Below are positions 1,677 to 45,612 of a stretch of DNA of 64,000 nt, in pieces. The first letter of the stretch is position 1. Every line of letters begins with the position of its first letter. The translations under genes were made by a program, and so were the position numbers. The stretch is from assembly GCA_900549975.1 (NCBI GenBank), contig URQK01000001.1, positions 23,400 through 87,399 of the forward strand, in the 5' to 3' direction. This stretch comes from an uncultured Mollicutes bacterium. Its GTDB lineage: Bacteria; Bacillota_I; Bacilli_A; RFN20; CAG-826. The notes beneath the pieces were generated by a model. It was not told where the DNA came from. It saw only the letters and a list, made by a program, of their open reading frames with translations, and ran no database searches.

Positions 1677-1704
1677 AAATAAAATTTAAAAGATTTAATT
1701 TTTG

Positions 1705-1736
1705 GAGAACTGGATAAATTCTAGTTCTCTTTTTAT
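1705..1736 (+). terminator. Rho-independent terminator after the first lipoprotein gene
   Basis: GAGAACT ... AGTTCTC stem followed by a T run (tctttttatt). Confidence 0.5.
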
Positions 1737-1755
1737 TATTAAATAAAAACAAAAA

Positions 1756-1800
1756 ATCCACTAAATCACTTTATTTAAGTGAAAATTTGGTGGATATTTT
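1756..1800 (-). terminator. Hairpin plus T run downstream (minus-strand sense) of tRNA-Ala
   Basis: ATCCACTAAAT / ATTTGGTGGAT imperfect inverted repeat with an inner CACTT/AAGTG pair. On the minus strand the hairpin is followed by TTTTTT. Confidence 0.4.
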
Positions 1801-1808
1801 AATTAAAT

Positions 1809-1884
1809 TGGTGGAGCCAACGAGGATCGAACTCGCGACCTCTTCGTTGCGAACGAAGCGCTCTCCCAACTGAGCTATGGCCCC
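1809..1884 (-). tRNA. tRNA-Ala, anticodon CGC
   Basis: The reverse complement reads GGGGCCATAGCTCAGTTGGGAGAGCGCTTCGTTCGCAACGAAGAGGTCGCGAGTTCGATCCTCGTTGGCTCCACCA (76 nt). It folds as a cloverleaf with a 7-bp acceptor stem containing the G3:U70 Ala identity pair, discriminator A73 and an encoded CCA. The anticodon loop is TTCGCAA, giving anticodon CGC. Confidence 0.85.
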
Positions 1885-2141
1885 ATGCATTGATAATTAT
1901 AGTTAATTTAATATCAAAAATAAACTATAATTTTCTCATTTTTTGCATAAAATTTTGAAATATTGCTTTTTTTAGTATTAATGTGAAAGCATTTTCATAT
2001 ATTTTTAAACTTCTACTATTGTTTTTTTGAAAATATAAATGTATTATATTTGCAATTAATCTATAGATTAAAAGAATCTTTTTTTTGAAAATTATAAAGT
2101 ATTTTTAATCTAAAATTGTTCAATTTTTAAAGGAGAAAAAT

Positions 2142-4433
2142 ATGAAAAAAGGAAAATTGTTTTTGACTATTTTGGCTAGTATGGCTTTAGTTGCTTGTAA
2201 TGAACCAACTAGTACATCTGGTTCTACATCTAAACCATCTACTTCAGATTCAGTTTCCACATCTACTGTAGAGAAGTTTAATGTAGAAGTAGTTGGTGGT
2301 ACTGGCGGAGGCAATGACATTACTTCTGGTAGTAGTGTCACAGTTGTGGCAAATGAACCAGAAGAAGGAAAAAAATTTGTTAAATGGGTAGATGAAAATG
2401 GTAACACTGTTTCAACTGATAAGAGTTACACATTTACGGTATCAAAGAGCGTAAAACTCACTGCAACTTATGAAACATTAAAATTTCAAGTGACAATTAC
2501 TGATGGAACTGGCTCAGGTGAATATGAATATGGCGCTAGTGTGACTATTCAAGCTAGTGTAACAAAAGGAAAAGAATTTATTGCCTGGGTAGACGCAAGT
2601 GGAAAAGAAGTAAGTAAAGATAATCCATATACATTTGTAGTAAAAAGCGATGTTACTTTATTTGCAGAATTTAAAGAAGCATTTGTGGAACCGCAAAACA
2701 TAGATGATGTGAAATCTCTTCTTGCTAAATCCGCTAAAGCGCAAGTTAACACTGCGTCGATGACAAGTAAAGTAAAAACAACTGCTTATAATGCTAATAA
2801 TAATTATGCAGTAAAATCAGAGACTGAATATAACGAAACCGCTAATATGTATGCTGATAATATTATGTTTGCTACAGGTAAAAATTCTACTGGTGAATAT
2901 GAGAAGGCGTTAAAAATAGAAAATAATCAATTGCTTTCTGTACTTTATTATCCAAAAGCATTAAGTTATTATTCTTCTGCTGTTAAATATGATATTGTTG
3001 ATGAAGTAATTGATGAAGATGCTCAAGTTACTTTAGAAAATGCCCAAGCACAAGTGTTTGCTAATAATTTAGTTTCAACACTATTAGAATTATTTAATGA
3101 CTATAAATTAGAAAATGTTGATAGTGTGACTTGTACAAGTGATAGTAATGTTCATAATATATTAATAAATGCACATTATGCGCCATCAGGTTATGAAAGT
3201 ACAAAGTATTGTACTATTGAAATAAACATTGTATTAAATCAATATTTTATTAAATCAGCTTCAATCGTTGAAAAGGAATATGTTCGTGCAACTCAATTCG
3301 AAAATGGCGTATTAAAAGAAGACGCAAAATCACTTAATAAATATGAAACAACGTATATTTGTGATCAATTGTCAAGTGATAAAGCTAGCGCACCAGATAC
3401 AGTTGATATTAATAAATACTTTATTTCTAGTTTTGATTTTTCAGGAAAATATAGCGATGGTGTTAGTACAAAGTCAGATCGTAAATTTAACAAAGATAAT
3501 AATAAAATTGCATTAAATGCTGAAATTTCATCGTATTATTTAGACATGTCAAATGTGTTGCCTGCGACAAGCATTGAAAAAAACACTTTAACAATTAAAT
3601 CTGTCGGAGATGAAAACATCTTCAAAGTAACAAAAAATAGCAGTGGAAAAATTTCTAGTATTAAAGCAATTGCAGTAGGTAAAACAACTATTACAGTTTC
3701 TTCTGTTGCAGGATGTTTATCTTCATATGAAGTTGAAGTTGTTGAAAATTTAGCCCCAGTTTCATTTGAAGTTGATTGTTTAGATAAAGTATTAGTAGGT
3801 GAAGAAATTGAATTAAATGTTAAAAATATAAGACCAGATACTTCTAATAAAAATGTTACATGGTCAGTTAATAATGCTGATATGGCAGAAATAGTAAATA
3901 AAGATGGTAAATTCTTCTTAAAAGGAAAAGGAGATAAAGCTGGATTTGTAACTATTACTGCTACGTCCAATAGTGATAATAGTGTTTCTGCTAGTAAAGA
4001 TGTCTTTATTTCTCAAGGAGCATTGTCACAAGATGCTTTACGTGAAGCCGTTAAGGGAACTTGGGTTAAAATGAGCTATTTTGGAACTTCTATCGAATTT
4101 ACTTTTAGTTTTAATGATGACGGAACATTCACCGCTGTTGACAATGTAAGAAAGTATAACAAAATAACCGGAAATGGTAATTGGGAAGTTTCAACTGATA
4201 AAGATTCTAGCATAGAAGACAATTTCTCTTCATATGGACATACAAATGTAGATGATTACTTAGTTGTTAAAATTACCAATTACACTTTAACTGATGAATC
4301 TGCTAATGGGTCGACAATTGAAATTCACTTTGCAATTGCTCCTGAAGGCTATGAAATGTATTATCACTTTAGAATTGGCTCAGGATCATTAAGTTCTGTA
4401 TCAACTATAGAAGGCAAAGTAATTAAACAATAA
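2142..4433 (+). CDS. Large surface lipoprotein with two tandem Listeria-Bacteroides-type (InlB B-repeat-like) domains and a Big_2-like Ig domain
   Basis: RBS AGGAG precedes ATG 2142. Signal peptide carries lipobox LVAC, followed by an S/T-rich linker. Two ~65-aa repeats (FNVEVVGG...KFVKWVDENGN...YTFTV...LTATYE and FQVTITDG...EFIAWVDASGK...YTFVV...LFAEFKE) are present. A Big_2-like segment lies around aa 490-560. Confidence 0.7.
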   Translation: MKKGKLFLTILASMALVACNEPTSTSGSTSKPSTSDSVSTSTVEKFNVEVVGGTGGGNDITSGSSVTVVANEPEEGKKFVKWVDENGNTVSTDKSYTFTVSKSVKLTATYETLKFQVTITDGTGSGEYEYGASVTIQASVTKGKEFIAWVDASGKEVSKDNPYTFVVKSDVTLFAEFKEAFVEPQNIDDVKSLLAKSAKAQVNTASMTSKVKTTAYNANNNYAVKSETEYNETANMYADNIMFATGKNSTGEYEKALKIENNQLLSVLYYPKALSYYSSAVKYDIVDEVIDEDAQVTLENAQAQVFANNLVSTLLELFNDYKLENVDSVTCTSDSNVHNILINAHYAPSGYESTKYCTIEINIVLNQYFIKSASIVEKEYVRATQFENGVLKEDAKSLNKYETTYICDQLSSDKASAPDTVDINKYFISSFDFSGKYSDGVSTKSDRKFNKDNNKIALNAEISSYYLDMSNVLPATSIEKNTLTIKSVGDENIFKVTKNSSGKISSIKAIAVGKTTITVSSVAGCLSSYEVEVVENLAPVSFEVDCLDKVLVGEEIELNVKNIRPDTSNKNVTWSVNNADMAEIVNKDGKFFLKGKGDKAGFVTITATSNSDNSVSASKDVFISQGALSQDALREAVKGTWVKMSYFGTSIEFTFSFNDDGTFTAVDNVRKYNKITGNGNWEVSTDKDSSIEDNFSSYGHTNVDDYLVVKITNYTLTDESANGSTIEIHFAIAPEGYEMYYHFRIGSGSLSSVSTIEGKVIKQ

Positions 4434-4453
4434 ATTAGGGAGTAAGAGGTTAT

Positions 4454-6166
4454 ATGAATAAAAAAATATTAATGTTAACATCAGCTCTAACTATCGGTGT
4501 GTTAGTGGCTTCATGTGGTAAAATTGAAAATTCATCAAATTCGAATTCATCATCTACAAGTGGGGGAACAAGTATCCCTAATACATCAGTGGATATTAAA
4601 AATGATGGAACAGTCGATTTAAATACTGCTCAATTATTAATAAATGGAGCAAAAGATAAAGATATCGATAATGCTAAAAAGAGTATTGTAACAACAGTTG
4701 CTATTGGCTATGATTCTGGAAGAAGATATCAACAAAGTAGCCGTTTAGAATCAACATCATATAAAGATGATTTAACAATTGGCACAGGAACAATTGAACA
4801 CTTTTTCTATGATAATCAAGATAATGTTTTAAAAGACACATTTGATGAAGTCTATACAATAAAATCAAATAATTATATTTATATGCGTAAATATAAGAAT
4901 GGCATATTTGTTGACCAAACAGAAAAGAAAAGTCTTTTAAACTCAACTGATCCAGTGGAATTAGAATACAACTACGCTACTGCGCGTGCTGAAGTATCAT
5001 GTGGAGCAGGATTAGATGCATATATCCAATTCTTTAATGCTCTTGTTGAAGCAGGCGGACAATGTTTATATGGTTCAGCAACAGATAAAGTAACAAACAA
5101 TGTTACATTATATTTCCAAACATCTTACGAAAGTACAGATACAAATCAATTAAGATTATCGACATTTGTATTCCAATTTGATAGTGCTAGAAATGGATTT
5201 TTACAAACATTTGATTCAACACAAAGTCTTTATAGTTTAGATATTTATAATGCTGCTGAAGATAAGAGTCAAATTCAACCAACGTATTATAGCAAACAAT
5301 TATTTGTCGTTGAAAAAGGTACACTTACTGATTTCACAGGTGAATTACCAGTTGATTTAGATAGTGCATTTGTTCAACAAATTAATGTTGCATCACCAAA
5401 AACAATAATTACAGTCGGTGAAACTATTGCTATCACATGGGAAGTTTTACCAACAACAGCATTAAACAAAACAGTAGTGCTTTCTAGTAAAAACGAAAAT
5501 GTAGCACGTGTTGATGAAGATGGTCGTGTTACAGGAATTAGTAAAGGCAAAGCAGTAATTTCTGTTTTAAATCCTGAAAGTGGAGTTGAAGGTACAATTG
5601 AAATAGAAGTTGTTGATAAGAGTCAAGGAGATGCCGGTGACGATTCTAAAAAAGGACCATTAAAAGCAGCATTGCAAGAAGCATTCTACCAATTATTTAA
5701 ATTTGATTCTATGTTCCATGGTGATTCCATTTTAGGAATGTGCCTAAGTTCAGATATTCAATTAAACGCTAAGAAACTTAGTGCTTTAACAATTTCGGAA
5801 TTTGCATATGATGAAAATTTACGTAAAGCAACATATGTTGGAGATTTGAGTAAGTTAATTGATATTCTTCCTTTTGAAGATAATGGAAACGCTAATGTAT
5901 CTAATGATTACTTACAAAAGCAGTTTAGTATATATCATGACAATGTCCTTGGATTAGAAGTATATCTAAAAGGGGACAATACAATAAGTTATATTAGATT
6001 TACAATGAGAACAGATAGCGCAAGTATGAGATCAGCAGAATTTGCAACATTAACTAACGAAAACGTACAAGAAGTAATGGGACAAAAGAGTGACTTCAAA
6101 GTAGGTTACGAACGCAAAGTAGTGTTTGAAAGCGCTGGATTCTCTTACCCAGATGACAATGAATAA
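4454..6166 (+). CDS. Surface lipoprotein with a Big_2-like domain
   Basis: RBS GGGAG precedes the start. Lipobox LVASC, then an S/N-rich linker. Ig-like segment ITVGETIAITWEVLPT...VARVDEDGRVTGISKGKAVISV. Confidence 0.7.
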   Translation: MNKKILMLTSALTIGVLVASCGKIENSSNSNSSSTSGGTSIPNTSVDIKNDGTVDLNTAQLLINGAKDKDIDNAKKSIVTTVAIGYDSGRRYQQSSRLESTSYKDDLTIGTGTIEHFFYDNQDNVLKDTFDEVYTIKSNNYIYMRKYKNGIFVDQTEKKSLLNSTDPVELEYNYATARAEVSCGAGLDAYIQFFNALVEAGGQCLYGSATDKVTNNVTLYFQTSYESTDTNQLRLSTFVFQFDSARNGFLQTFDSTQSLYSLDIYNAAEDKSQIQPTYYSKQLFVVEKGTLTDFTGELPVDLDSAFVQQINVASPKTIITVGETIAITWEVLPTTALNKTVVLSSKNENVARVDEDGRVTGISKGKAVISVLNPESGVEGTIEIEVVDKSQGDAGDDSKKGPLKAALQEAFYQLFKFDSMFHGDSILGMCLSSDIQLNAKKLSALTISEFAYDENLRKATYVGDLSKLIDILPFEDNGNANVSNDYLQKQFSIYHDNVLGLEVYLKGDNTISYIRFTMRTDSASMRSAEFATLTNENVQEVMGQKSDFKVGYERKVVFESAGFSYPDDNE

Positions 6167-7418
6167 AAAAGTATTATATTTAGCAATTCTCCCATTATTG
6201 CTAATAGCTTGTGATACTAGTGGTAGCGCAAGTAATTCTACTTCCGTCTCTAGTGTTTCTTTAACACCAGTTTCTTGGAATTTTGGAAGTAATAGTGCTT
6301 CTAATAAGCCATCTACTTCCACATCACAAGGAACGTCAAATACATCTAATTCAACAAGTAATGCAAATTCAGTATCAGAGGCTGATTTTAATAAGAAATT
6401 AATTCAAGCCACATTAATTGACGAATTAGATATCAATGAAGTATCGGTTTATACATATTTATCAGATGCAGTTGATAAATCAACAACAAGACAAGATTAT
6501 TCGATTAAACAATATTCTAATAATATTACTATTCAAACTGGAAAAGTAACGAAAGAATTAAAAAATGGAACAAGATATATAGAAACATATACAACACAAA
6601 ATACTTATGATGCCTCTACAACTTATTTGACATCTATTAAAAAATATAGTGGTACATTTAATAATTCGATAAGTATGACTAAATATGATGAAACATCCGC
6701 TAAATACTTGTTAGAAATTGGTCCAGCTACAAGAGCCTATTTTGCAATTAATAGTTTAGTTTCAAAATTTGGAGGCATTGATAATTTCCTTTTTGAATGT
6801 GAAAAAGATAGTTCTGGTGGTCTTGATGCTACTTATTTCTATTGTAATCCTTTAGATGGAAATGAGAACTTAGGCACAGTCATGGCTGTGGGTATACAAG
6901 TAAAAATCGATAAAGAAGGTTATGTCTATGATTTCTTTTATGGATATGGCTATTATCACCAAATGGATGCTACAAGCGCAACTAGGATGAGAAGAAGCGG
7001 ACCTTATGGATTTGGCCAAGATGGATATTCTTGTATTTATGAAAGTATTACTAAAGGTGAGCGTAAAGAATATGAAGGAGATTTACCATTTCCTTTAGAA
7101 GATAATATCCCTTCTAGTATAAGTTTTGAAAGTGATACTATTAATATATCACTAAGTGACATAGTTGAAGATGAAAAAGGATTACGCTATATTAATTTAT
7201 TAGATTATTTAGCGACTACTCCAAAATTAGGTGAAACAACAGACGCTCCAGCAAATGTTGCTACATTCTCTTTAAAAGATAATAATGTAGGACACATGGA
7301 TGATTCTAAACATTATTTGATATTTAATGGACCAACTGGAGAAATTGAGGTAACTGTTAACTATAAATTAGGGAATTTAGATTTATCAGCTAGTGCTAAG
7401 ATTGTTGTTACCGAATAA
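6159..7418 (+). CDS. Surface lipoprotein (probable start MNKKVLYLAILPLLLIAC; an in-frame TTG at 6126 and ATG at 6153 are alternatives)
   Basis: Lipobox LIAC followed by a long S/T/N-rich low-complexity linker. The start overlaps the upstream stop by 8 nt. Confidence 0.6.
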   Translation: MNKKVLYLAILPLLLIACDTSGSASNSTSVSSVSLTPVSWNFGSNSASNKPSTSTSQGTSNTSNSTSNANSVSEADFNKKLIQATLIDELDINEVSVYTYLSDAVDKSTTRQDYSIKQYSNNITIQTGKVTKELKNGTRYIETYTTQNTYDASTTYLTSIKKYSGTFNNSISMTKYDETSAKYLLEIGPATRAYFAINSLVSKFGGIDNFLFECEKDSSGGLDATYFYCNPLDGNENLGTVMAVGIQVKIDKEGYVYDFFYGYGYYHQMDATSATRMRRSGPYGFGQDGYSCIYESITKGERKEYEGDLPFPLEDNIPSSISFESDTINISLSDIVEDEKGLRYINLLDYLATTPKLGETTDAPANVATFSLKDNNVGHMDDSKHYLIFNGPTGEIEVTVNYKLGNLDLSASAKIVVTE

Positions 7419-32207: not shown

Positions 32208-33179
32208 ATGAGCAAAATCGTAAGTCCATTCGCAAAAATTAAATTTGATATTGCTGAATTCGATGGTAACACTAACTATGGTAAATTTGTAGTTGGACCA
32301 TTAGAAAGAGGTTACGCTTTAACAATTGGAAATTCATTAAGAAGAGTTATGCTTTCTTCATTACCAGGTGCTTCTGTATTTGCTATTGAAGTTGAAGGTG
32401 CTCGTCACGAATTCTCTGCACTTGAAGGTGTTGAAGAAGACGTTACAATGATTATCCTTTCTTTAAAAGATTTAGTTTTAAAAATTGACGATGAAGAATC
32501 AGTCACTAAGAGAATTGAATTAGAAGTAGAAGGACCTAAAGTCGTTACTGCCGCTGATTTAGTTGTTCCAGGTGATGTCGAAGTTATTAACCCTGATTTA
32601 GTCCTTGCTCACGTTGCAGAAGGTGGAAAATTAAAAATGACACTTTATGCTCGTAACGGACGCGGTTATGTAACTTCAGAAGGCAATAAATTACTTCGTA
32701 CAGGTATGAATATTGGCACAATCGCAACAGATTCTAACTATTCACCAATTACAAAAGTAAATTATGAAGTACAACCAACTCGTGTTGGACATAATGCAAA
32801 TTATGAAAACTTAGTATTAGAAGTTTGGACAAATGGTTCTATGCTTCCACAAGATGCTGTAGCGCTTGCTGCAAAAATCTTAGTCGCTCATTTCGAAGAA
32901 TTCTTAAAATTAAACGAAATTACTCGCGATATTAATATTGTTGCTGAACCAGTTGAACAAACATCTAACAAATACGAAGATATGACAATTGAAGAATTAG
33001 ATTTATCAGTTCGTTCATATAACTGCTTAAAGAGAGCAGGTATTGCAACTGTCTTAGAATTAACTCAAAAGACAGAAGAAGATATGATGAAAGTACGTAA
33101 CCTTGGTAAGAAATCACTTAAAGAAGTTAAAGAAAAACTTCTTGGTATTGGTTTAGGCTTCAAGGATTACATTGATTAG
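32208..33179 (+). CDS. rpoA: DNA-directed RNA polymerase subunit alpha
   Basis: Conserved alpha NTD/CTD. GGGAGG RBS precedes ATG 32208. Confidence 0.95.
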   Translation: MSKIVSPFAKIKFDIAEFDGNTNYGKFVVGPLERGYALTIGNSLRRVMLSSLPGASVFAIEVEGARHEFSALEGVEEDVTMIILSLKDLVLKIDDEESVTKRIELEVEGPKVVTAADLVVPGDVEVINPDLVLAHVAEGGKLKMTLYARNGRGYVTSEGNKLLRTGMNIGTIATDSNYSPITKVNYEVQPTRVGHNANYENLVLEVWTNGSMLPQDAVALAAKILVAHFEEFLKLNEITRDINIVAEPVEQTSNKYEDMTIEELDLSVRSYNCLKRAGIATVLELTQKTEEDMMKVRNLGKKSLKEVKEKLLGIGLGFKDYID

Positions 33180-33191
33180 GAGGAAGTTTAA

Positions 33192-33599
33192 ATGGCTACA
33201 CAAGGACGTAAGAATGTACATGGTAAAGGTGGCGTTCGCTTTAAAGCTGCCTATACTTCAAGCAAATATAAAGCAATGTTAAGAAACGTTGTATCAGAAT
33301 TAATCGTTCATGAACGTGTTACTGTTACTGCTGGCTGTGCTAAAGATGTCAAAAATTTAGCAGAAAAATTAGTTAGCAAGGCTAAAGTTGGCGATTTACA
33401 CAATCGTCGTTTAGCTGCTGCAGTTGTCCGCTCCGAGGTTTATTGTGATGCAGAAAAGAAAGTAACTGCTTTAGACAAGTTATTTAATGAAATTGGTCCA
33501 CGTTACAAAGATCGTAATGGTGGATACACAAGAGTATTGAAGCTTGTCCCACGCCGTGGTGACAATGCAGAAATGGCTATTGTTGAATTTGTAAAATAG
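33192..33599 (+). CDS. rplQ: 50S ribosomal protein L17
   Basis: Conserved L17. Confidence 0.93.
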   Translation: MATQGRKNVHGKGGVRFKAAYTSSKYKAMLRNVVSELIVHERVTVTAGCAKDVKNLAEKLVSKAKVGDLHNRRLAAAVVRSEVYCDAEKKVTALDKLFNEIGPRYKDRNGGYTRVLKLVPRRGDNAEMAIVEFVK

Positions 33600-33616
33600 T
33601 TTTTTATAATTTATTT

Positions 33617-33646
33617 AGACTAACCATTTGGTTAGTCTTTTCTTTT
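33617..33646 (+). terminator. Rho-independent terminator ending the alpha operon
   Basis: AGACTAACC-ATTT-GGTTAGTCT hairpin followed by a T run. Confidence 0.7.
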
Positions 33647-33679
33647 GCTTTACATCATATAATTATTTAGGAATATAAT

Positions 33680-34132
33680 ATGAAAAAAATAAACATTGAT
33701 TTGGTCTTTAATTTGCTTTTTCCATTATTAGTAAATTTTGTTATTTCTATGCTTTTAGGAGATTTTTCATCTTATTATAGTAATTTGAATAGTTTAATTT
33801 ATATACCATCGATTTTATTTCCGATTGTTTGGTCAATATTATATTTAATTATCGGATATGTTAGTTATAAATTAGATGAACTAATGGATGTTAAGGGAAG
33901 TAAAATATTTTATATTCAATTATTATTTAATGTCTTATGGACTCCTTTATTTTTTGGTTTACATCTACCAATAGTAAGTGCAATAGATATTTTAATATTA
34001 TTAGGATTATGCATTTATATGTTAATTTATTTGTTTAAAAACAATAATAACTTAGCATATTTATGGATTCTATATGTTATTTGGTTGACTTTTGCAACTT
34101 TTTTAAACGTAAGTATTGCTATACTAAATTAA
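33680..34132 (+). CDS. TspO/MBR-family (tryptophan-rich sensory protein-like) membrane protein
   Basis: 150 aa, 5 TM helices. Family motifs present: IVWSILYLIIGY, LLFNVLWTPLFFGL, YVIWLTFATFLNVSI. Confidence 0.75.
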   Translation: MKKINIDLVFNLLFPLLVNFVISMLLGDFSSYYSNLNSLIYIPSILFPIVWSILYLIIGYVSYKLDELMDVKGSKIFYIQLLFNVLWTPLFFGLHLPIVSAIDILILLGLCIYMLIYLFKNNNNLAYLWILYVIWLTFATFLNVSIAILN

Positions 34133-34257
34133 ATATAATAATGCTCAAAAATTAGTGCTTTTCTTTGTTTTAGAACTAGCACTTTTTTTGTTGCTTAAAG
34201 CACTTACAATACCTAAAATATGCAAAAATTAAAAAAATATCAAAATATGCAATAATA

Positions 34258-34288
34258 TTTACAAAATGCAATATTTTTATGTTATACT
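34258..34288 (+). promoter_or_regulatory. Putative promoter of the hydrogenase operon (TTTACA ... TGtTATACT), preceded by three AAAATATGCAA-like direct repeats
   Basis: The -35 TTTACA is at 34258 and the extended -10 at 34280-34288. The repeats lie at 34215-34225 and 34242-34252, with a CAAAATGCAA variant at 34262-34271. Confidence 0.4.
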
Positions 34289-34358
34289 AAAAAGGTATTT
34301 TATAGTATTTATATAGGTTTTATATAAATGTCTTATTACTAGGAGGATTTTTTAAAAT

Positions 34359-34847
34359 ATGGCAAAATTGAGTTCAGCCGCTTGCAAAAGGGTTGAAGAA
34401 ATCATCGCTGAGTATAAGAATGAAAATACACCATTAATGATGATCTTGAGTCAGGTTCAAAAAGAATATGGCTATATTCCTTTTGAAGTTCAAGAAATCA
34501 TATCTGAAAAATTAGGTATACCTGTTTCAGAAATATATGGTGTAGTTACTTTTTACTCATTTTTTTCTTTGAAACCTAAAGGCAAATTTGTTATTGGGGT
34601 TTGTTTAGGAACTGCATGTTACGTTAAAGGTGCACAACAAATATGTGACAAGTTTTCCGAACTTTTAGGTATTAAACCTGGAGAAACAACTGAAGATGGA
34701 TTGTTTACTATTGATGCCTTACGTTGCATTGGAGCATGTGGTATTGCCCCAGCAGTAAGTATTAATGGGAAAGTATATCCTAAGATGTCAGTTAATCAAG
34801 TACAACAAGTAATCAATGAATATCGTAAGTTAGGAGGAGAAGCATAA
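34359..34847 (+). CDS. hydC: [FeFe]-hydrogenase gamma subunit / NuoE-like [2Fe-2S] thioredoxin-like ferredoxin (HydC/HndA)
   Basis: NuoE-type cysteine pattern (CxxxxC...CxxxC). Confidence 0.8.
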   Translation: MAKLSSAACKRVEEIIAEYKNENTPLMMILSQVQKEYGYIPFEVQEIISEKLGIPVSEIYGVVTFYSFFSLKPKGKFVIGVCLGTACYVKGAQQICDKFSELLGIKPGETTEDGLFTIDALRCIGACGIAPAVSINGKVYPKMSVNQVQQVINEYRKLGGEA

Positions 34848-36712
34848 TGATTAAAACAGAGCAAGAATTAAAAGATAAAATTGCTAAATGCACTCACTGC
34901 TTAGATATTAAATTTAGTGGAGAAAACGGAAAACGCGCTATTGTAGTTTGTGGTGGTACGGGCTGTTTATCTTCGCACTCTGATGAAATTAAAAATCGAT
35001 TAGAAGAATTAATTAAAGAACATAATTTAGAAGATAAAGTAACGGTTAACCAAGTTGGTTGTTTTGGTTTCTGCTCTCAAGGACCATTTGTTAAAATTTT
35101 CCCAGAAGATACTTTATATCATATGGTTAAAGTAGAAGACTGTGAAGAAATTATTGAAAAAGATATCATGGGTAAAGAAGTAATCGATCATTTATTAATT
35201 ACTGATCCACATACCCATCAAAAAGTCGTTAAACAAGATGACTTGAATTTCTATAAAAAACAAGTACGAATTGCTTTACATGGTTGTGGCGTTATTAATC
35301 CAGAAGATATTAATGAAGGGTTAGGCTATGGTGCTTTCCAAGGCTTAGCTCGTGCTTTAAAAATGGATAGACAAGAAGTAATTAATGAAATACTTGCTTC
35401 TGGATTACGCGGCCGTGGTGGTGGCGGATTCCCAACAGGAAGAAAATGGCAATTTGCTTATAACCAAGATAGCGAAGAAAAGTATGTTGTATGTAATGGT
35501 GATGAAGGCGATCCAGGTGCCTTTATGGATCGTTCAATCTTAGAAGGTAATCCATTAGCGGTTATTGAAGGTATGATGATTGCAGGTTACGCAATTGGAG
35601 CAAAGAATGGTTATTTCTATGTTCGTGCTGAATATCCAATTGCTGTACATCGTTTAACTGTTGCTATTAAAGAAGCTGAAGAATTAGGATTAATTGGTGA
35701 CAATATTTTAGACTCAGGTTTCTCATTTAGAGTTCATTTAAGATTAGGCGCTGGTGCTTTCGTTTGTGGTGAAGAAACAGCCTTATTAAACTCAATTCAA
35801 GGACAACGTGGAATGCCACGTCCTCGTCCTCCATTCCCTGCTGTAAAGGGATTATGGGATAAACCAACCATTGTGAATAACGTTGAAACTTTAGCTTGTG
35901 TTCCTTATATTATTCGTGAAGGTGTTAAAGAATTCACTAAGTATGGAACAGAAAAATCTAAAGGTACAAAAGTATTTGCTTTGGGTGGAAAAATAAATAA
36001 TGTTGGATTAGTAGAAATTCCAATGGGAACTACACTTCGTGAATTAATTTATGATATTGGTGGCGGTATCCCAAATGATAAAAAATTCAAAGCCATTCAA
36101 ACTGGTGGTCCATCAGGAGGATGTTTGACAAGTGAATATTTAGATACTCCAATCGACTTTGATAACTTAGTTGCTCTTGGCTCAATGATGGGCTCAGGCG
36201 GTGCAATTGTTATGGATGAAGACAACTGTATGGTCGACGTTGCTAAATTCTATATGGAATTTATTTGTGATGAATCATGTGGTAAGTGCTCACCATGTCG
36301 TATTGGTACAAAGAGAATGTTAGAATTATTAACTAAGATTACCAATGGACAAGGAACACTAGAAGATATTGATCGTTTAGAAGAATTAGGAAGAGCTACA
36401 CAAGCAGGTTCATTATGTGCTTTAGGCCAAACTGCTGCGAATCCAATTATTTCAACAATGAGTCACTTCAAAGATGAATATATTGCTCACGTAGTGGATA
36501 AAAAATGTCCAGCAAAAGTATGTAAAAAACTTATGGAATATTATATTAAACCAGAAGTTTGTAAGAAATGTAGTAAATGTGCACGTGGATGTCCAGTTAA
36601 CGCTATTCATGGTGAAATTGGTAAAACTCCATATGTCATTGATTCCGCTAAATGTATTAAATGTGGTATGTGTATAAGTGCATGTCCATTTAAAGCAATT
36701 ATTAAGAGATAG
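34847..36712 (+). CDS. hydB: [FeFe]-hydrogenase beta subunit / NuoF-like NAD(P)H-binding flavoprotein with Fe-S domains (HydB/HndC)
   Basis: N-terminal 2Fe-2S Trx-like domain. NuoF core GRGGGGFPTGRKW for FMN/NADH. SCGKCSPCR cluster. C-terminal 2x[4Fe-4S] ferredoxin (CKKCSKCARGCP, CIKCGMCISACP). Confidence 0.85.
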   Translation: MIKTEQELKDKIAKCTHCLDIKFSGENGKRAIVVCGGTGCLSSHSDEIKNRLEELIKEHNLEDKVTVNQVGCFGFCSQGPFVKIFPEDTLYHMVKVEDCEEIIEKDIMGKEVIDHLLITDPHTHQKVVKQDDLNFYKKQVRIALHGCGVINPEDINEGLGYGAFQGLARALKMDRQEVINEILASGLRGRGGGGFPTGRKWQFAYNQDSEEKYVVCNGDEGDPGAFMDRSILEGNPLAVIEGMMIAGYAIGAKNGYFYVRAEYPIAVHRLTVAIKEAEELGLIGDNILDSGFSFRVHLRLGAGAFVCGEETALLNSIQGQRGMPRPRPPFPAVKGLWDKPTIVNNVETLACVPYIIREGVKEFTKYGTEKSKGTKVFALGGKINNVGLVEIPMGTTLRELIYDIGGGIPNDKKFKAIQTGGPSGGCLTSEYLDTPIDFDNLVALGSMMGSGGAIVMDEDNCMVDVAKFYMEFICDESCGKCSPCRIGTKRMLELLTKITNGQGTLEDIDRLEELGRATQAGSLCALGQTAANPIISTMSHFKDEYIAHVVDKKCPAKVCKKLMEYYIKPEVCKKCSKCARGCPVNAIHGEIGKTPYVIDSAKCIKCGMCISACPFKAIIKR

Positions 36713-36723
36713 GGGTGAGAAAC

Positions 36724-38496
36724 ATGGAAAAAGTAAATATCAAAATTGAAGGTCACTCTTATCAAGTTGATGCCGGTTTAACTATTTTAGAGGCAGCCAA
36801 AGAGTGTGGATATACAATTCCTACTTTATGTGCCTTTAATCATGGAGAATGCTCTAAGGGATCATGTAGGGTTTGTTTAGTAGAAGTTAAAGGAGCAAGA
36901 GGTTTAGTTGCTTCTTGTGTATATCCAGTTAATGAAGGAATGGAAATCATTATTTCTTCTCCAAAAGCTGTTAGTGCACGTAGAACTAGTGTGGAATTAT
37001 TATTATCAAATCACTCAAAAAACTGCCAACAATGCACTAAAAATGAATATTGTGAGTTATTAAATGTTGCTAAAATTACTGGTGCTAGAGACAATATGTA
37101 TGAAGGAAGTAAAACTCCAGTTACTATTGATGAGTTAACTCCATCTATCATTCGTGATACATCTAAATGTGTATTATGTGGAAGATGTGTGGAAAGATGT
37201 AAAAATGCACAAGGAATTGGTATTTTAGGATTTGAAAATCGTGGCTTTAAAACTATTGTAGCGCCAGCCTATAATCGTTCAATGAAAAACTCACCATGCA
37301 TTTTATGTGGACAATGTGTTAATGTTTGCCCTACTGGTGCTTTAATGGAAAAAAGCGAAATTGATAAACTTGATCAAGCTAAAAAAGAAGGTAAGTATAT
37401 TGTTGTACAAACCGCTCCAGCAGTGCGCGCTGCTTTAGGTGAAGAATTTGGTATGCCAATAGGAACTTCTGTTACTGGTAAGATGGTCGCGGCTTTAAAA
37501 CGTTTAGGCTTTGATAAGGTTTATGATACGAACTTTGCTGCAGATTTAACAATTATGGAAGAAGCCACGGAATTAGTACATCGTATTAAAGAAGGTGGAC
37601 AACTTCCAATGATTACCTCATGTTCACCAGGTTGGGTGAATTATGCAGAATATTTCTATGGTGATTTATTAGGACACTTATCAAGTTGTAAATCTCCTCA
37701 TGAAATGGAAGGGGCAATAATTAAATCTTATTTTGCAGAGAAAAAAGGTTTGGATCCAAAAAATATCTTTGTTGTATCAATTATGCCTTGTACTGCTAAA
37801 AAATATGAAAAAGAACGTCCAGAAAATGCTTCTAAAGAAGGATTAAAAGATGTAGATTGTGTCTTAACCACACGTGAATTAGCAAGATTAATCAAAAGAT
37901 CCGGTATTGACTTTAGAAGATTACCAGATGAAGAATTTGATCAAGACTTGTTAGGTGAATATACCGGCGCGGGAGTTATATTTGGTGTAACTGGCGGCGT
38001 TATGGAAGCAGCTTTAAGAACAGCATACTTCACAATTACTGGTAAAGAACATGATTTAATTACATTTAAAGAAGTTCGTGGCTTTGATGGTTTAAAAGAA
38101 GCGGAAATTGATTTAAATGGAACAAAAATTAAAGTAGCTGTTGCTCATGGCATGAAAAATGCTAAACCATTATTAGATGATATTCGTGCAGGTAAATCAC
38201 CATATACGTTTATTGAAATTATGGGATGTCCAGGCGGATGTATCAATGGTGGTGGACAACCATTTGTTAAACCATGCTTCTTACCAAATGAAGACGCTAA
38301 TATATTAGATACATATAAGGAAAAACGTGCAAAAGTGCTATATTCTGAAGATGAAAAGCAAGTATTAAGACAATCTCATCGTAATACTCAAATTCAACAA
38401 CTTTATAAAGATTATTTAGGTGAACCAAATAGTCATAAAGCACATGAATTGTTGCATACTTCATATCATGCAAGAGAGCGTTATCCTGAAAAATAA
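36724..38496 (+). CDS. hydA: [FeFe] hydrogenase catalytic subunit (HydA/HndD) with a non-canonical L1 motif
   Basis: N-terminal 2Fe-2S and 2x4Fe-4S ferredoxin domains. H-cluster motifs L2 MPCTAKKYE and L3 EIMGCPGGCINGGGQP are present. L1 reads TSCSPGW rather than TSCCPxW. ATG 36724 lies after a GGGGTGAG RBS (the ORF track GTG is at 36715). Confidence 0.85.
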   Translation: MEKVNIKIEGHSYQVDAGLTILEAAKECGYTIPTLCAFNHGECSKGSCRVCLVEVKGARGLVASCVYPVNEGMEIIISSPKAVSARRTSVELLLSNHSKNCQQCTKNEYCELLNVAKITGARDNMYEGSKTPVTIDELTPSIIRDTSKCVLCGRCVERCKNAQGIGILGFENRGFKTIVAPAYNRSMKNSPCILCGQCVNVCPTGALMEKSEIDKLDQAKKEGKYIVVQTAPAVRAALGEEFGMPIGTSVTGKMVAALKRLGFDKVYDTNFAADLTIMEEATELVHRIKEGGQLPMITSCSPGWVNYAEYFYGDLLGHLSSCKSPHEMEGAIIKSYFAEKKGLDPKNIFVVSIMPCTAKKYEKERPENASKEGLKDVDCVLTTRELARLIKRSGIDFRRLPDEEFDQDLLGEYTGAGVIFGVTGGVMEAALRTAYFTITGKEHDLITFKEVRGFDGLKEAEIDLNGTKIKVAVAHGMKNAKPLLDDIRAGKSPYTFIEIMGCPGGCINGGGQPFVKPCFLPNEDANILDTYKEKRAKVLYSEDEKQVLRQSHRNTQIQQLYKDYLGEPNSHKAHELLHTSYHARERYPEK

Positions 38497-38512
38497 ATCT
38501 TAATTTAGATAG

Positions 38513-38546
38513 AAACGATGCCAAAAAATGGCATCGTTTTTTTAAG
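38513..38546 (+). terminator. Rho-independent terminator after hydA
   Basis: AAACGATGCC ... GGCATCGTTT hairpin followed by TTTTTT. Confidence 0.75.
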
Positions 38547-38645
38547 CAAATAATACATATTATTTGAAAATTAATGAGTTGAAGCAAAATGCTTTTTATT
38601 AACGAAATATAATGCTATAATATTTATTAAGGCGGGGATTATTTT

Positions 38646-39983
38646 ATGGAAGTTAAAATCTATAATTCTTTAACTAACAAAATTGAAGTATTTGAACCAA
38701 TACACAAAAACAAAGTTAATATGTATGTTTGTGGACCAACTGTTTATAATTATGTGCATATAGGTAATATGCGCCCAGTAGTGGTATTTGATACATTTAG
38801 AAAATTTCTTACTTATATTGGTTATGACGTCAAGTATGTTAGCAACTACACAGATGTAGATGATAAAATAATCAAACGTGCCCAAGAATTAAATAAGCCA
38901 GAATCAGAAATAACTGAATTTTACATTAAAGCTTTCGAAGATGATTTGCATAATATTAATGCTTTAAAGCCAGACGTAACTCCAAGAGTTACTGAATATA
39001 TGTCGCAAATAATTGCGTTCATTGATCAACTTGTAAAGACTGATTATGCATATGATATTGATGGTGATGTATATTTCCGTGTAGAGAAAATTAAAGATTA
39101 TGGCAAATTATCCAACACAAAAATCGAAGATTTATTAGTTGGCGCTAGAATAGATGAAAATTCTAAAAAAGAATCACCATTAGACTTTACTTTATGGAAG
39201 AAAACAAATGTAGGTATCAATTGGGATTCGCCTTGGTCAAAAGGAAGACCGGGTTGGCATACAGAATGTGTTGTGATGATTAATTCAATATTCCCTGGTG
39301 GACTTATAGATATTCATGGAGGAGGTTTTGATTTAAAATTTCCGCACCATGAAAACGAAATTGCTCAATCAGAAGCATATAATAAATGTTCCTTAGCTAA
39401 TTATTGGATGCATAATGGATTTATTAATATTAATAATGAAAAAATGTCTAAATCGCTAGGAAATGTTATTACCGCTCATGATGCATTAAGCCAATATGGC
39501 GGCAATAATGTTAGATTGCTTTTGATTTCCACTCATTATCGTGCACCAGTTAATTTTTCTTATGACTTGTTAGCAGCATGTAATAATGAAATTACAAAAA
39601 TGACTAATATTATGCGTCAATTAGCAGTTAAATTACAAGAATTTGATGTTTCTTTTGCTAATGGTAAATCAAGATTTATTGAACCGTTTTTAAATGCTTT
39701 AGCGGATGATTTAAACACCTCTAATGCCTTAAGCGAATTGCATAATGTTATTAAACTAGCTAATCAATCATTAAGAAAAAAAGATGTGGATTTGTCAGAA
39801 ATTAATGATTTATTTTCCACACTTAAAGATGAATTTTACATATTAGGTGTTAATATTGAATATCCTATTTTATCTAGTGAAGACAAGGACCTTTTAAGTG
39901 AATATAACTTAGCAAAATCCAGCAAAGATTTTGCTAAAAGTGATGAACTACGAAAAAAATTAATAGATAAAAGGATATTATAA
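38646..39983 (+). CDS. cysS: Cysteine--tRNA ligase
   Basis: HIGH motif (HIGN) and KMSKS; class I CysRS architecture. Confidence 0.93.
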   Translation: MEVKIYNSLTNKIEVFEPIHKNKVNMYVCGPTVYNYVHIGNMRPVVVFDTFRKFLTYIGYDVKYVSNYTDVDDKIIKRAQELNKPESEITEFYIKAFEDDLHNINALKPDVTPRVTEYMSQIIAFIDQLVKTDYAYDIDGDVYFRVEKIKDYGKLSNTKIEDLLVGARIDENSKKESPLDFTLWKKTNVGINWDSPWSKGRPGWHTECVVMINSIFPGGLIDIHGGGFDLKFPHHENEIAQSEAYNKCSLANYWMHNGFININNEKMSKSLGNVITAHDALSQYGGNNVRLLLISTHYRAPVNFSYDLLAACNNEITKMTNIMRQLAVKLQEFDVSFANGKSRFIEPFLNALADDLNTSNALSELHNVIKLANQSLRKKDVDLSEINDLFSTLKDEFYILGVNIEYPILSSEDKDLLSEYNLAKSSKDFAKSDELRKKLIDKRIL

Positions 39984-39992
39984 GGAGGACTT

Positions 39993-40745
39993 ATGAATAT
40001 TTTTTCATACTTTTTTGATGTAGTGCCACCGAATATTTTCAGTTTGGATGATAAAATAATCGGTTTTTTTAATCAATATGCATGGTGGGGAAATTTATTA
40101 CTCGCTTTTATTAGTATTTTCCTTGCTTGTGTGTTTAGTGGATTAATTGGCTATGAACGTGAATCGCATGGACATTTTGCAGGATTTAGAACGCATATTT
40201 TAGTGGCAGCAGGTTCGTCATTAATTATGTATTTATCCATTTATGGATTTAGTTTTGAATCATTTCCTAATCATGATCCAGCAAGATTAGCAGCTCAAGT
40301 TGTAACTGGCATTGGTTTTTTAGGTGCTGGAACAATATTGAAAACAGGTGTTGATATTAAAGGCTTAACTACTGCGACAACACTCTGGGTTTGTATGGCT
40401 ATTGGTCTTGCTACAGGTGCAGGAAGATTCATTGTTGCATTATTCACCACCTTGATTGTTTTAATTGTATTAAAATTTTTAAGATGTGCAGAAGCAAAGG
40501 CATTTGAAAAAACACCTCGGTTAGTTATGATTTGTGATTATAATGTTTTTGCTATTAAAACTATTAAGGATTTGGCGGATAAATTTAATATAGCTATTAA
40601 AAACATTAATACACAAATTTGCGATTATCATGGTAAAGATGCTGTTAGTATTAGCATTGTATTAATCGATGTTAGACGTAAAACTGTAGATCAATTCGGC
40701 GAAGAGCTTAGAATAGCTCTTAAACCTTTTGAAATCAAATATTAA
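39993..40745 (+). CDS. MgtC/SapB family membrane protein
   Basis: MgtC signature: SGLIGYERE...AGFRTHILVAAGS...TGIGFLGAGTIL. Confidence 0.75.
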   Translation: MNIFSYFFDVVPPNIFSLDDKIIGFFNQYAWWGNLLLAFISIFLACVFSGLIGYERESHGHFAGFRTHILVAAGSSLIMYLSIYGFSFESFPNHDPARLAAQVVTGIGFLGAGTILKTGVDIKGLTTATTLWVCMAIGLATGAGRFIVALFTTLIVLIVLKFLRCAEAKAFEKTPRLVMICDYNVFAIKTIKDLADKFNIAIKNINTQICDYHGKDAVSISIVLIDVRRKTVDQFGEELRIALKPFEIKY

Positions 40746-43554: not shown

Positions 43555-45612
43555 ATGAGAAAAAAATTATTTTGTCTATTAAGTGTTTCTTGTTTATTAG
43601 CACTCGGTGCTTGTAATCAAGGAGGATCATCTACGTCTAATAGTGGCGCATCTACTCAACCTTCAACAAGTTTGAAAGAACGTTACAACTGTATTGACAT
43701 AAGTGAAGCATTAGAAATTGCTTCTAAAGCTAGTGAGCCAACACAAGAAAGATATTATCTTTATGGCAAAATTACTAGTGTTTCCAATTATGATTATGGA
43801 AGCATGGAAATTGAAGATGGAACTGGTAAGATTTATATTTATGGAACGTATAGTGAAGATGGAAGTATCCAGTACAAAAATTTAGAATATAAGCCAGATG
43901 TAAATGATGAAATTGTTGTTTATGCTACTCTTCAAACTCATAGTGGACAACCAGAAGTAAAAAATGCATGGTTAATTGATTATGTCGATAGTAATACACA
44001 ATTTGATGTTAGCGAATATGAAAAAATGACTATTACTAAAGCTAGAGAAGCGAAAAAAGGCAAAAAAGTTTTGGTGTCAGGTGTTGTAAGTAAAAAAACA
44101 TATGCGACAGGAAAGAAAGAAAACGGCTTTTATCTTGTTGATAATACATCTTCTATTTATATTTACGATTCATCGACTGTATTAAAAGTAAAAGAAGGTA
44201 ATGCTATTACTTTAGCGGCAACAAAAGACTACTGGATTTTAGAAGATGAAGTGCCTTTTGCTGAAAAGTATGGTTACAATGGCTCATGCCAATTAACCAA
44301 AGGACATATTATTAGTAATGATGAAGGTAGAAATGATATTGATACAAGCTGGGTTGAAGAAACAACTATAAAACAAATTATGGACACTCCAGTTACTGAA
44401 AATATTACAAATAAAATTTTTAAAGCAAATGCCTATATAGCTAAATCTCAAAAAGAAGGATATGTTAACTATTATATTGATGATTTAGATGAAACTACAG
44501 GATCTTATGTTTATACACAATGTAATGGCAGTGATTTGAATTGGCTTGAGAAATTTGATGGGAAGATTTGTACAGTGTTGGTTGTGGCAATCAATGCTAA
44601 ATCTACAATATCAGGATGTTCTTGGAGATTTATTCCAATTTCTGTTAAAGACGAAGGATTTACTTTTGATAAGGCTAATGTCGGACAATTCGTATATGAT
44701 TATAAAGTTAAAACCTTGTTTAAAGATGTGTATACAGGCGATCCAAAAGTAATGGTTCCAGTAACTGCTTCTTCATCACTTTTAGGTTTTGCAAACGCAA
44801 GTATTAGTTATTCTTCTAGCAATGAAAAAGTTGCGTATTTTAGCGAAGATGAAGGTGTTTTAACATTTCATACTAATGAAGTAGGCAATGCTACGATAAC
44901 AGTTAAAATTAATTACGAAAATAATGCGACATTTGTTAAAACATTTAATGTATCAGTTACTTTGCCAAAAGTTACAGAATCTATAACAGTTAAAGAAGCT
45001 ATTGATAGTGAACTTAACTCTGTTGTAACTGTTAAAGGTATTGCTGGTCCATCATTAGTGAATAAAGTAGGATTTTATTTGATTGATGAAAGTGGCGCAA
45101 TCGCGATTACGACATCTTCAGAAACTATTAGTTCTATTAGTTTAGGAAATGAAGTAATATTAAAGGGAACGCGTTCGCAATTAGGAGTTGTTCAAGATAA
45201 ATCAGTTGGCGAAATTTTTCTTGATAACTGTGAATTAGTGTCAAATTTGTATGGAAAACATGATTACTCAACCGCATCATTTGATGGTAGTAAAACTTTA
45301 GCGGATTTAGCTAAAATTAAAGCGACGGAAAATGCTACAGCACAAGTATATGTATTTGAGGGAACTTTTGAAAAAGTTGTACAACCCAAGTACTCTAATA
45401 TGTATGTTAAAAATGGTGATACAAAAATCCGTTTATATTGTTCAAATGCTGCTCAATATGAATGGTTGGATGAGTTTGAAAATCAAACTGTCACCATTGA
45501 AATGGCTCTATGCAACTGGAATGGTAAAACTTATTACACTGGTTGTGTATTATCAGTCACAGCAAACGGTGTAAAAACCATGAACACTCTTGTTTATAGC
45601 CAAAACAATTAG
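43555..45612 (+). CDS. Surface lipoprotein with repeated OB-fold-like (BOF/tRNA_anti-like) modules and a Big_2-like domain
   Basis: Lipobox LGAC. Three OB-like segments of type YLYGKITSV...GSMEIEDGTGKIYIYG, VLVSGVVSKK...GFYLVDNTSSIYIYD and VVTVKGIAGPSLVNKVGFYLIDESGAIAITT. An Ig-like segment lies around aa 400-470. Confidence 0.6.
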   Translation: MRKKLFCLLSVSCLLALGACNQGGSSTSNSGASTQPSTSLKERYNCIDISEALEIASKASEPTQERYYLYGKITSVSNYDYGSMEIEDGTGKIYIYGTYSEDGSIQYKNLEYKPDVNDEIVVYATLQTHSGQPEVKNAWLIDYVDSNTQFDVSEYEKMTITKAREAKKGKKVLVSGVVSKKTYATGKKENGFYLVDNTSSIYIYDSSTVLKVKEGNAITLAATKDYWILEDEVPFAEKYGYNGSCQLTKGHIISNDEGRNDIDTSWVEETTIKQIMDTPVTENITNKIFKANAYIAKSQKEGYVNYYIDDLDETTGSYVYTQCNGSDLNWLEKFDGKICTVLVVAINAKSTISGCSWRFIPISVKDEGFTFDKANVGQFVYDYKVKTLFKDVYTGDPKVMVPVTASSSLLGFANASISYSSSNEKVAYFSEDEGVLTFHTNEVGNATITVKINYENNATFVKTFNVSVTLPKVTESITVKEAIDSELNSVVTVKGIAGPSLVNKVGFYLIDESGAIAITTSSETISSISLGNEVILKGTRSQLGVVQDKSVGEIFLDNCELVSNLYGKHDYSTASFDGSKTLADLAKIKATENATAQVYVFEGTFEKVVQPKYSNMYVKNGDTKIRLYCSNAAQYEWLDEFENQTVTIEMALCNWNGKTYYTGCVLSVTANGVKTMNTLVYSQNN

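Follow-up and report, generated by a model that had tools for sequence, protein, structure and literature searches.

The subject of this report is a 64,000-nucleotide stretch of DNA from an uncultured Mollicutes bacterium (contig URQK01000001.1), the whole of which we call the window, and in particular three adjacent genes in it, hydC, hydB and hydA. We consider it likely, with a probability of about 0.85, that the product of these genes is an ordinary and functional [FeFe]-hydrogenase of the HydABC type, NADH- and ferredoxin-linked and of the bifurcating or confurcating kind (group A3, Calusinska A6), which belongs to a large natural subclass in which serine is a ligand of the catalytic H-cluster. 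What we observed ourselves is the sequence, its alignment and conservation, the wide distribution of the variant, and the identity of both motifs discussed below with those of the Acetobacterium woodii enzyme. A first-pass annotation of the window had claimed that the catalytic subunit, HydA, reads TSCSPGW at the L1 motif, with the serine codon TCA at 37624-37626, and LSSCKSP shortly downstream of it. The sequence confirms both, and the L2 and L3 motifs are intact.

Serine at a ligand position of the H-cluster

The hydA gene lies on the forward strand at 36724..38496 and encodes an M3-type [FeFe]-hydrogenase catalytic subunit of 590 amino acids (aa) when it is read from the ATG at 36724. The mechanically defined open reading frame (ORF) is slightly longer (36715..38496, 593 codons) and starts at a GTG at 36715, which falls within the GGGGTGAG ribosome-binding site just ahead of the ATG. 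Because this ribosome-binding site precedes the ATG and public gene calls use the ATG and give 590 aa, the true start is probably ATG 36724. Pfam recognizes PF02906 (E 1e-101), PF02256 (E 1.8e-23), PF13510 and PF10588 in the protein, and its domains run from an N-terminal [2Fe-2S] domain through a NuoG-type cluster region and ferredoxin-type [4Fe-4S] domains to the large-subunit and small-subunit domains of iron hydrogenases. HydA scores 545 bits against TIGR02512 (cut-off 406) and 855 bits against the NCBIfam model NF040763, 'NADH-dependent [FeFe] hydrogenase, group A6' (cut-off 765), whereas its 185.8 bits against the group B1 model are far under the cut-off of 450.

The segment at 37609-37695 is translated as MITSCSPGWVNYAEYFYGDLLGHLSSCKS. 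The L1 region in it reads PMITSCSPGW, and the motif itself, TSCSPGW, occupies 37615..37635 on the forward strand; TGT at 37621-37623 encodes the first cysteine, which is the relay residue, and TCA at 37624-37626 places a serine where the second cysteine is expected. The protein departs in this respect from the canonical TSCCPxW, in which the second cysteine is a ligand of the [4Fe-4S] cubane. Counted from the ATG, the motif serine is residue 301, the same number that it has in A. woodii HydA1. The L2 motif, MPCTAKKYE (37783..37809, forward strand), contributes one cysteine ligand and a lysine that aligns with CpI Lys358, and the L3 motif, EIMGCPGGCINGGGQP (38215..38262, forward strand), contributes two cysteine ligands, one of them bridging to the di-iron site; the patterns MPCxxKxxE and ExMxCxxGCxxG are both intact.

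Alignments made with phmmer to CpI (4xdc), Thermoanaerobacter kivui HydA (8a6t) and A. woodii HydA1 (7q4v) are gapless over a span that opens about 85 residues ahead of L1 and runs past L2. Because there are no gaps around L1, the motif serine is unambiguously placed by these alignments in the column of CpI Cys300 and T. kivui Cys299. The proposal of the first-pass annotation that serine stands at a ligand position of the [4Fe-4S] subcluster, giving an altered ligand set, is thereby upheld, and an alignment in which the serine falls elsewhere was not obtained: it stays on the second cysteine of TSCCP. With serine in the Cys300 column and every other H-cluster ligand kept, the window HydA has the sequence features of the TSCSPxW subclass typified by A. 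woodii. The proton relay is complete as well, the counterparts of CpI Cys299, Glu279, Ser319, Glu282 and Arg286 all being conserved (5/5) in the gapless CpI alignment. Three of them, those aligning with Glu279, Glu282 and Arg286 in CpI numbering, lie in MEEATELVHR (37555..37584, forward strand). Further downstream on the same strand, the first serine of LSSCKSP (37678..37698) corresponds to CpI Ser319, and its cysteine (TGT, 37687-37689) to CpI Ala321.

The hydCBA operon

Two genes on the forward strand precede hydA. The first, hydC (34359..34847), encodes a NuoE-like, thioredoxin-like [2Fe-2S] subunit of 162 aa (PF01257, E 3.9e-51). The second, hydB (34847..36712), encodes a NuoF-like subunit of 621 aa for flavin mononucleotide (FMN) and NAD(H), with matches to PF01512, PF10589, PF01257 and Fer4 families; it has an N-terminal [2Fe-2S] domain and a C-terminal 2x[4Fe-4S] ferredoxin domain. 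A NuoF-like HydB and a NuoE-like HydC thus stand directly beside an M3-type HydA, which is the arrangement of a HydABC operon. The best match in the PDB is to the same complex for each subunit: 7q4v_A for HydA (E 7.1e-192), 7q4v_B for HydB (E 7.5e-244) and 7q4v_C for HydC (E 3.3e-50). Residues 420-424 of HydB read GGPSG, which every putative bifurcating beta subunit shares according to Losey et al. 2020 (PMC7311640); of the beta-subunit signature given in that work, GGPSG was the position that we compared. Judged from the Pfam families, the NF040763 score, the 7q4v best matches and GGPSG in HydB, the three genes are a hydCBA operon for a HydABC-type hydrogenase.

Distribution of the serine variant

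The variant is not a novelty: it is already present in sequence surveys, in Melainabacteria genomes and in the A. woodii structure. As cited by Kertess et al. 2017 (PMC5855289), Winkler, Esselborn and Happe 2013 found that about 20% of the putative hydrogenase sequences analyzed have serine here. TSCSPGW was noted in the trimeric hydrogenases of Melainabacteria by Di Rienzi et al. 2013 (PMC3787301), the only paper in which we found 'TSCSP' used as a term, and we found no later literature on the serine ligand beyond Katsyv et al. We observed that PMC3787301 words the change as 'replacement of a serine by cysteine', the reverse of its own motifs, and that in its two TSCSPGW proteins an isoleucine replaces a cysteine in motif 3, unlike in the window HydA.

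Among the best 150 representatives from a protein library clustered at 50% identity, we counted 24 TSCSP and 118 TSCCP motif occurrences. We also scanned the contigs of one genome per species for PMxTSCSPGW with the serine coded by TCN, and obtained at least 120 loci, each listed match being a hydrogenase gene. The 80 titles listed include Clostridia, Erysipelotrichaceae, Bacteroidales, Verrucomicrobiota, Planctomycetota, Spirochaetes, Elusimicrobia, Deltaproteobacteria, Caldisericota and Coriobacteriales. Nearly all of the matches listed have about 300 residues ahead of L1, as in the M3 architecture, and a NuoF-type FMN motif lies upstream on the same strand in 55 of the 67 listed loci that have at least 3 kb of upstream sequence. 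The TSCSPGW variant of the window HydA is already known, widespread and ordinary.

Two observations made in these sets concern other proteins. Three TSCSP hydrogenases from Clostridia or Oscillospiraceae metagenome-assembled genomes (L002, L028 and L114) have AIPC in place of MPC in L2, so that isoleucine replaces the methionine near the bridging CO (CpI Met353). One entry of the representative library (P0121) is a predicted protein of 4122 residues with seven separate H-domain-like stretches, which may be a fusion, an array of repeats or an artefact of the gene model.

Proposed mechanism and the points against it

In A. woodii HydABC, Ser301 takes the place of one of the cysteines that bind cluster A1, the cubane of the H-cluster; the corresponding residue of T. 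kivui is Cys299 (Katsyv et al. 2023, PMC10021017). The complex was purified, had a bifurcating activity of 4.1 U/mg and gave a reduced structure at 3.4 Å; its H-cluster had typical infrared signatures and the normal protonation-dependent states HoxH, Hhyd and Hred (PMC10021017). We infer from this literature that serine ligation, and with it normal spectroscopy and activity, would carry over to the 51%-identical orthologue in the window. The H-cluster cubane would then be held by the L2 cysteine, the two L3 cysteines and the O-gamma of Ser301 in TSCSPGW, while the first L1 cysteine would remain beside the di-iron site in its role as proton relay. HydA is predicted to act together with HydB and HydC, as its A. 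woodii counterpart does, in a hydrogenase linked to NADH and ferredoxin, and the cysteine of LSSCKSP would be a common residue of the family and not a replacement ligand.

Several points weigh against this proposal. The Fe-O(Ser) ligation in A. woodii is a cryo-electron microscopy model at 3.4 Å, which cannot rigorously resolve a metal-ligand bond. The engineered C115S variant of Chlamydomonas reinhardtii HydA1 (CrHydA1) loses most of the [4Fe-4S] cluster and all activity. Because that variant is inactive and the natural serine enzymes are active, tolerance of serine at the ligand position depends on context. Finally, the genes hydE, hydF and hydG, for which the first-pass annotation had suggested looking elsewhere in the genome, were not found within the 64-kb window; apart from HydB, the window has no ORF of 250 aa or more with a radical-SAM CxxxCxxC motif, and none of the large ORFs scanned is a maturase.

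One way in which the context might matter is that natural serine ligation works only in a co-adapted scaffold, with the serine tuning the potential of the cubane for the bifurcating or confurcating chemistry of HydABC. We regard this as tentative and, on balance, unlikely. The candidate co-adaptations would be isoleucine for phenylalanine before TSC, the glycine in P-G-W, the cysteine at CpI 321 and the loss of alanine before the first L3 cysteine (in this order, residues 300, 306, 325 and 504 of the window HydA in GTG numbering). These columns were compared among representatives P0122-P0270 and loci L001-L120, and the enrichments in the serine class are moderate: glycine in P-G-W is found in 95% vs 38%, isoleucine more often replaces phenylalanine before TSC, and cysteine stands at CpI 321 in 83-95% vs 51%, while alanine before the first L3 cysteine is rarer in TSCSP (25% vs 77%). 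The serine class is largely cohesive, the nearest neighbour also being of the serine class for 19 of 20 serine-class representatives. Fitch parsimony on a neighbour-joining tree counted 13 switches between cysteine and serine, a number that is unreliable because 19 of the 20 neighbour their own class and because the tree is poorly resolved at 50-60% identity. The enrichments are possibly clade signatures, or they may reflect adaptation of the second sphere to the serine ligand; in our data they are inseparable from shared ancestry. If the co-adapted scaffold were real, it would account for the loss of function that this substitution causes in CrHydA1, and O-ligated H-clusters could be engineered by rule.

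Alternative explanations

The first-pass annotation described an Ala-to-Cys change near the motif and considered a compensating rearrangement in which the new cysteine supplies the missing thiolate. The cysteine is present, but it is a change relative to CpI only. We tabulated the CpI-321 column against the L1 type for 142 motif pairs from the 150 representatives and for 119 genome loci. The TSCCP representatives (n = 118) have cysteine in 60 cases, alanine in 31, threonine in 13, serine in 8, valine in 5 and isoleucine in 1; the TSCSP representatives (n = 24) have cysteine in 20 and alanine in 4; and the listed TSCSP genome loci (n = 119) have cysteine in 113, alanine in 5 and serine in 1. 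Cysteine is thus the commonest residue of the family at this column in our sets, and the alanine of CpI a minority state. That the cysteine of LSSCKSP is the fourth cubane thiolate and the motif serine a bystander would fit the enrichment of cysteine in TSCSP enzymes (Fisher p = 0.003 for representatives and 1.5e-15 for loci, uncorrected for phylogeny). The same cysteine is, however, commonest in canonical enzymes, which already have four cysteine ligands, and the four TSCSP representatives and six listed loci that do without it have alanine or serine there; yet they retain L2 and, with the single exception of L005, the L3 pattern too. On a rough tree we counted about 47 changes of state at this column, which marks it as a variable site. 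In the CpI structure, residue 321 presumably sits on the segment leading to Ser323/Pro324, on the di-iron side and away from the iron bound by Cys300, which also speaks against its being a ligand. The published A. woodii model names Ser301 as the ligand (PMC10021017). We consider a replacement of the ligand by this cysteine highly improbable.

Another possibility is an exchange of roles, or a shift of register, within L1, such that the remaining cysteine ligates the cubane and serine, or nothing, is left at the relay position. Kertess et al. speculated along such lines when they named the neighbouring Cys114 as a possible alternative ligand in the C115A variant (PMC5855289). There are, however, no indels around L1 in the window HydA, and the flanks PM-x-TS and PGW are conserved. 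Variants in which the relay residue Cys299 is changed to serine are inactive according to a review (PMC11376134), and loss of the relay cysteine should therefore be visible; A. woodii HydABC has normal HoxH, Hhyd and Hred states and normal activity (PMC10021017). An exchange of this kind has very little probability in our estimation.

A sensory or low-activity variant had also been suggested by the first-pass annotation, and a regulatory or degenerate hydrogenase of low or no activity would agree with the missing cluster-ligand cysteine and with the inactivity of the engineered CrHydA1 equivalent. The evidence from the window runs against it. The relay residues, L2 and L3 are all intact; Pfam finds no PAS or other sensory domain in HydA, only ferredoxin-type, H-domain and small-subunit domains; the hydCBA operon is complete; and the nearest characterized relative with the same motif, A. 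woodii HydA1 in its active HydABC, is catalytically competent. In addition, six independent strain copies of hydA differ from that of the window by 20-52 nucleotides and by one amino acid (K45R), and because of this disparity we judge purifying selection on the gene to be strong. A defective or sensory protein is, in view of all this, extremely improbable.

A sequencing or assembly error at the serine codon can be dismissed, as the first-pass annotation had expected: all six strain copies, from independent assemblies that diverge elsewhere in hydA, carry ACC TCA TGT TCA CCA GGT TGG, a protein with K45R as its sole difference from the window HydA occurs in 105 index blocks of public assemblies, and TSCSPGW is found in 115/115 of the motif-covering proteins among the best 120 database relatives as well as in the at least 120 species genomes of the scan. 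A 2.03-Mb contig, ERZ28757091 contig_4581, has the gene with K45R as its one amino-acid difference. The source of the window is a low-GC bacterium, and the closest named relative of its HydA is an Erysipelotrichales protein from a metagenome-assembled genome, with 88% identity.

Genomic neighborhood of the operon

The three genes are tightly packed. The stop codon of hydC overlaps the start of hydB (ATAATG, 34844-34850), and the end of hydB lies 12 bases ahead of the hydA ATG (36709-36726). The operon is flanked by ribosomal-protein and translation genes on one side and by cysS on the other, and six independent metagenome contigs share the gene order TspO, hydC, hydB, hydA, cysS, mgtC and spoU-type methylase. 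We saw no hydD-like gene beside the operon. Promoter-like and terminator-like sites around it are no more frequent than in shuffled sequence, and Rfam gives no match in 33000-40000. Elsewhere in the window, five large ORFs (529, 763, 570, 430 and 685 aa; at 87-7418 and 43555-45612) have no NCBIfam match at E <= 1e-10.

Implications for annotation

The practical value of the result lies in annotation: TSCSPGW should not be taken to mean that a hydrogenase is defective or sensory. The active A. woodii HydA1 departs in the same way from the textbook L1 motif, TSCCPxW, which is therefore too narrow, and failing to match it does not exclude a protein from the HydA family. As a discovery the window HydA is of minor weight, since the serine replacement is known from surveys, from metagenomic genomes and from the cryo-electron microscopy and spectroscopy of an active enzyme. 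Serine is tolerated at this position by natural enzymes but not by the engineered algal one, and it may tune the cluster.

Comparison with known systems

A. woodii HydABC(D) (PDB 7Q4V, 7Q4W and 8A5E; PMC10021017) has the same three-subunit set as the window and provides the best PDB match for each of its subunits. HydA1 of that complex is 51% identical to the window HydA over the full length, PMITSCSPGW and HLSSCKSP are identical in both, and L2, L3 and the proton relay are likewise intact. The two proteins differ at the residue before the first L3 cysteine, which is glycine in the window HydA and alanine in A. woodii.

The HydABC complexes of T. kivui (8A6T) and Thermotoga maritima (7P5H) and the clostridial hydrogenase CpI (4XDC) have the fold and domain order of the M3-type HydA of the window; T. 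maritima HydA is a further PDB match to it (E 9.5e-127). Unlike the window HydA, T. kivui HydA and CpI have the canonical TSCCP and an all-cysteine cubane, and CpI is monomeric. The CpI-321 column holds alanine in CpI and in T. kivui (STARSP), and cysteine in the window HydA. In CpI the ligand that bridges to the di-iron site is the second cysteine of L3 (Cys503). The paper on the A. woodii and T. kivui complexes calls Cys354 (T. kivui) and Cys356 (A. woodii) the di-iron bridging cysteine, and our alignment puts both of them on the L2 cysteine; a numbering slip or a mislabel is possible (PMC10021017).

Sensory [FeFe]-hydrogenases of groups C and D (HydS type) also deviate from the canonical active-site motifs. 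Their proton-relay residues are altered and they carry extra sensory or regulatory domains. The window HydA, with its relay intact and no sensory domain, does not show these features of the HydS type. The group B [FeFe]-hydrogenases offer another natural L1 variant, TSCCCP, but it consists of an extra cysteine and not of a change from cysteine to serine, and it belongs to a different group and architecture.

The closest engineered counterpart is the C115S variant of C. reinhardtii HydA1 (expressed-protein numbering, the second cysteine of TSCC), in which the substitution and the ligand position are the same as those of the window serine. This variant lost most of its [4Fe-4S] cluster, took up no [2Fe] and was inactive (Kertess et al. 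2017, PMC5855289). The contrast between the inactive engineered CrHydA1 and the active natural serine enzymes must stem from the surrounding scaffold.

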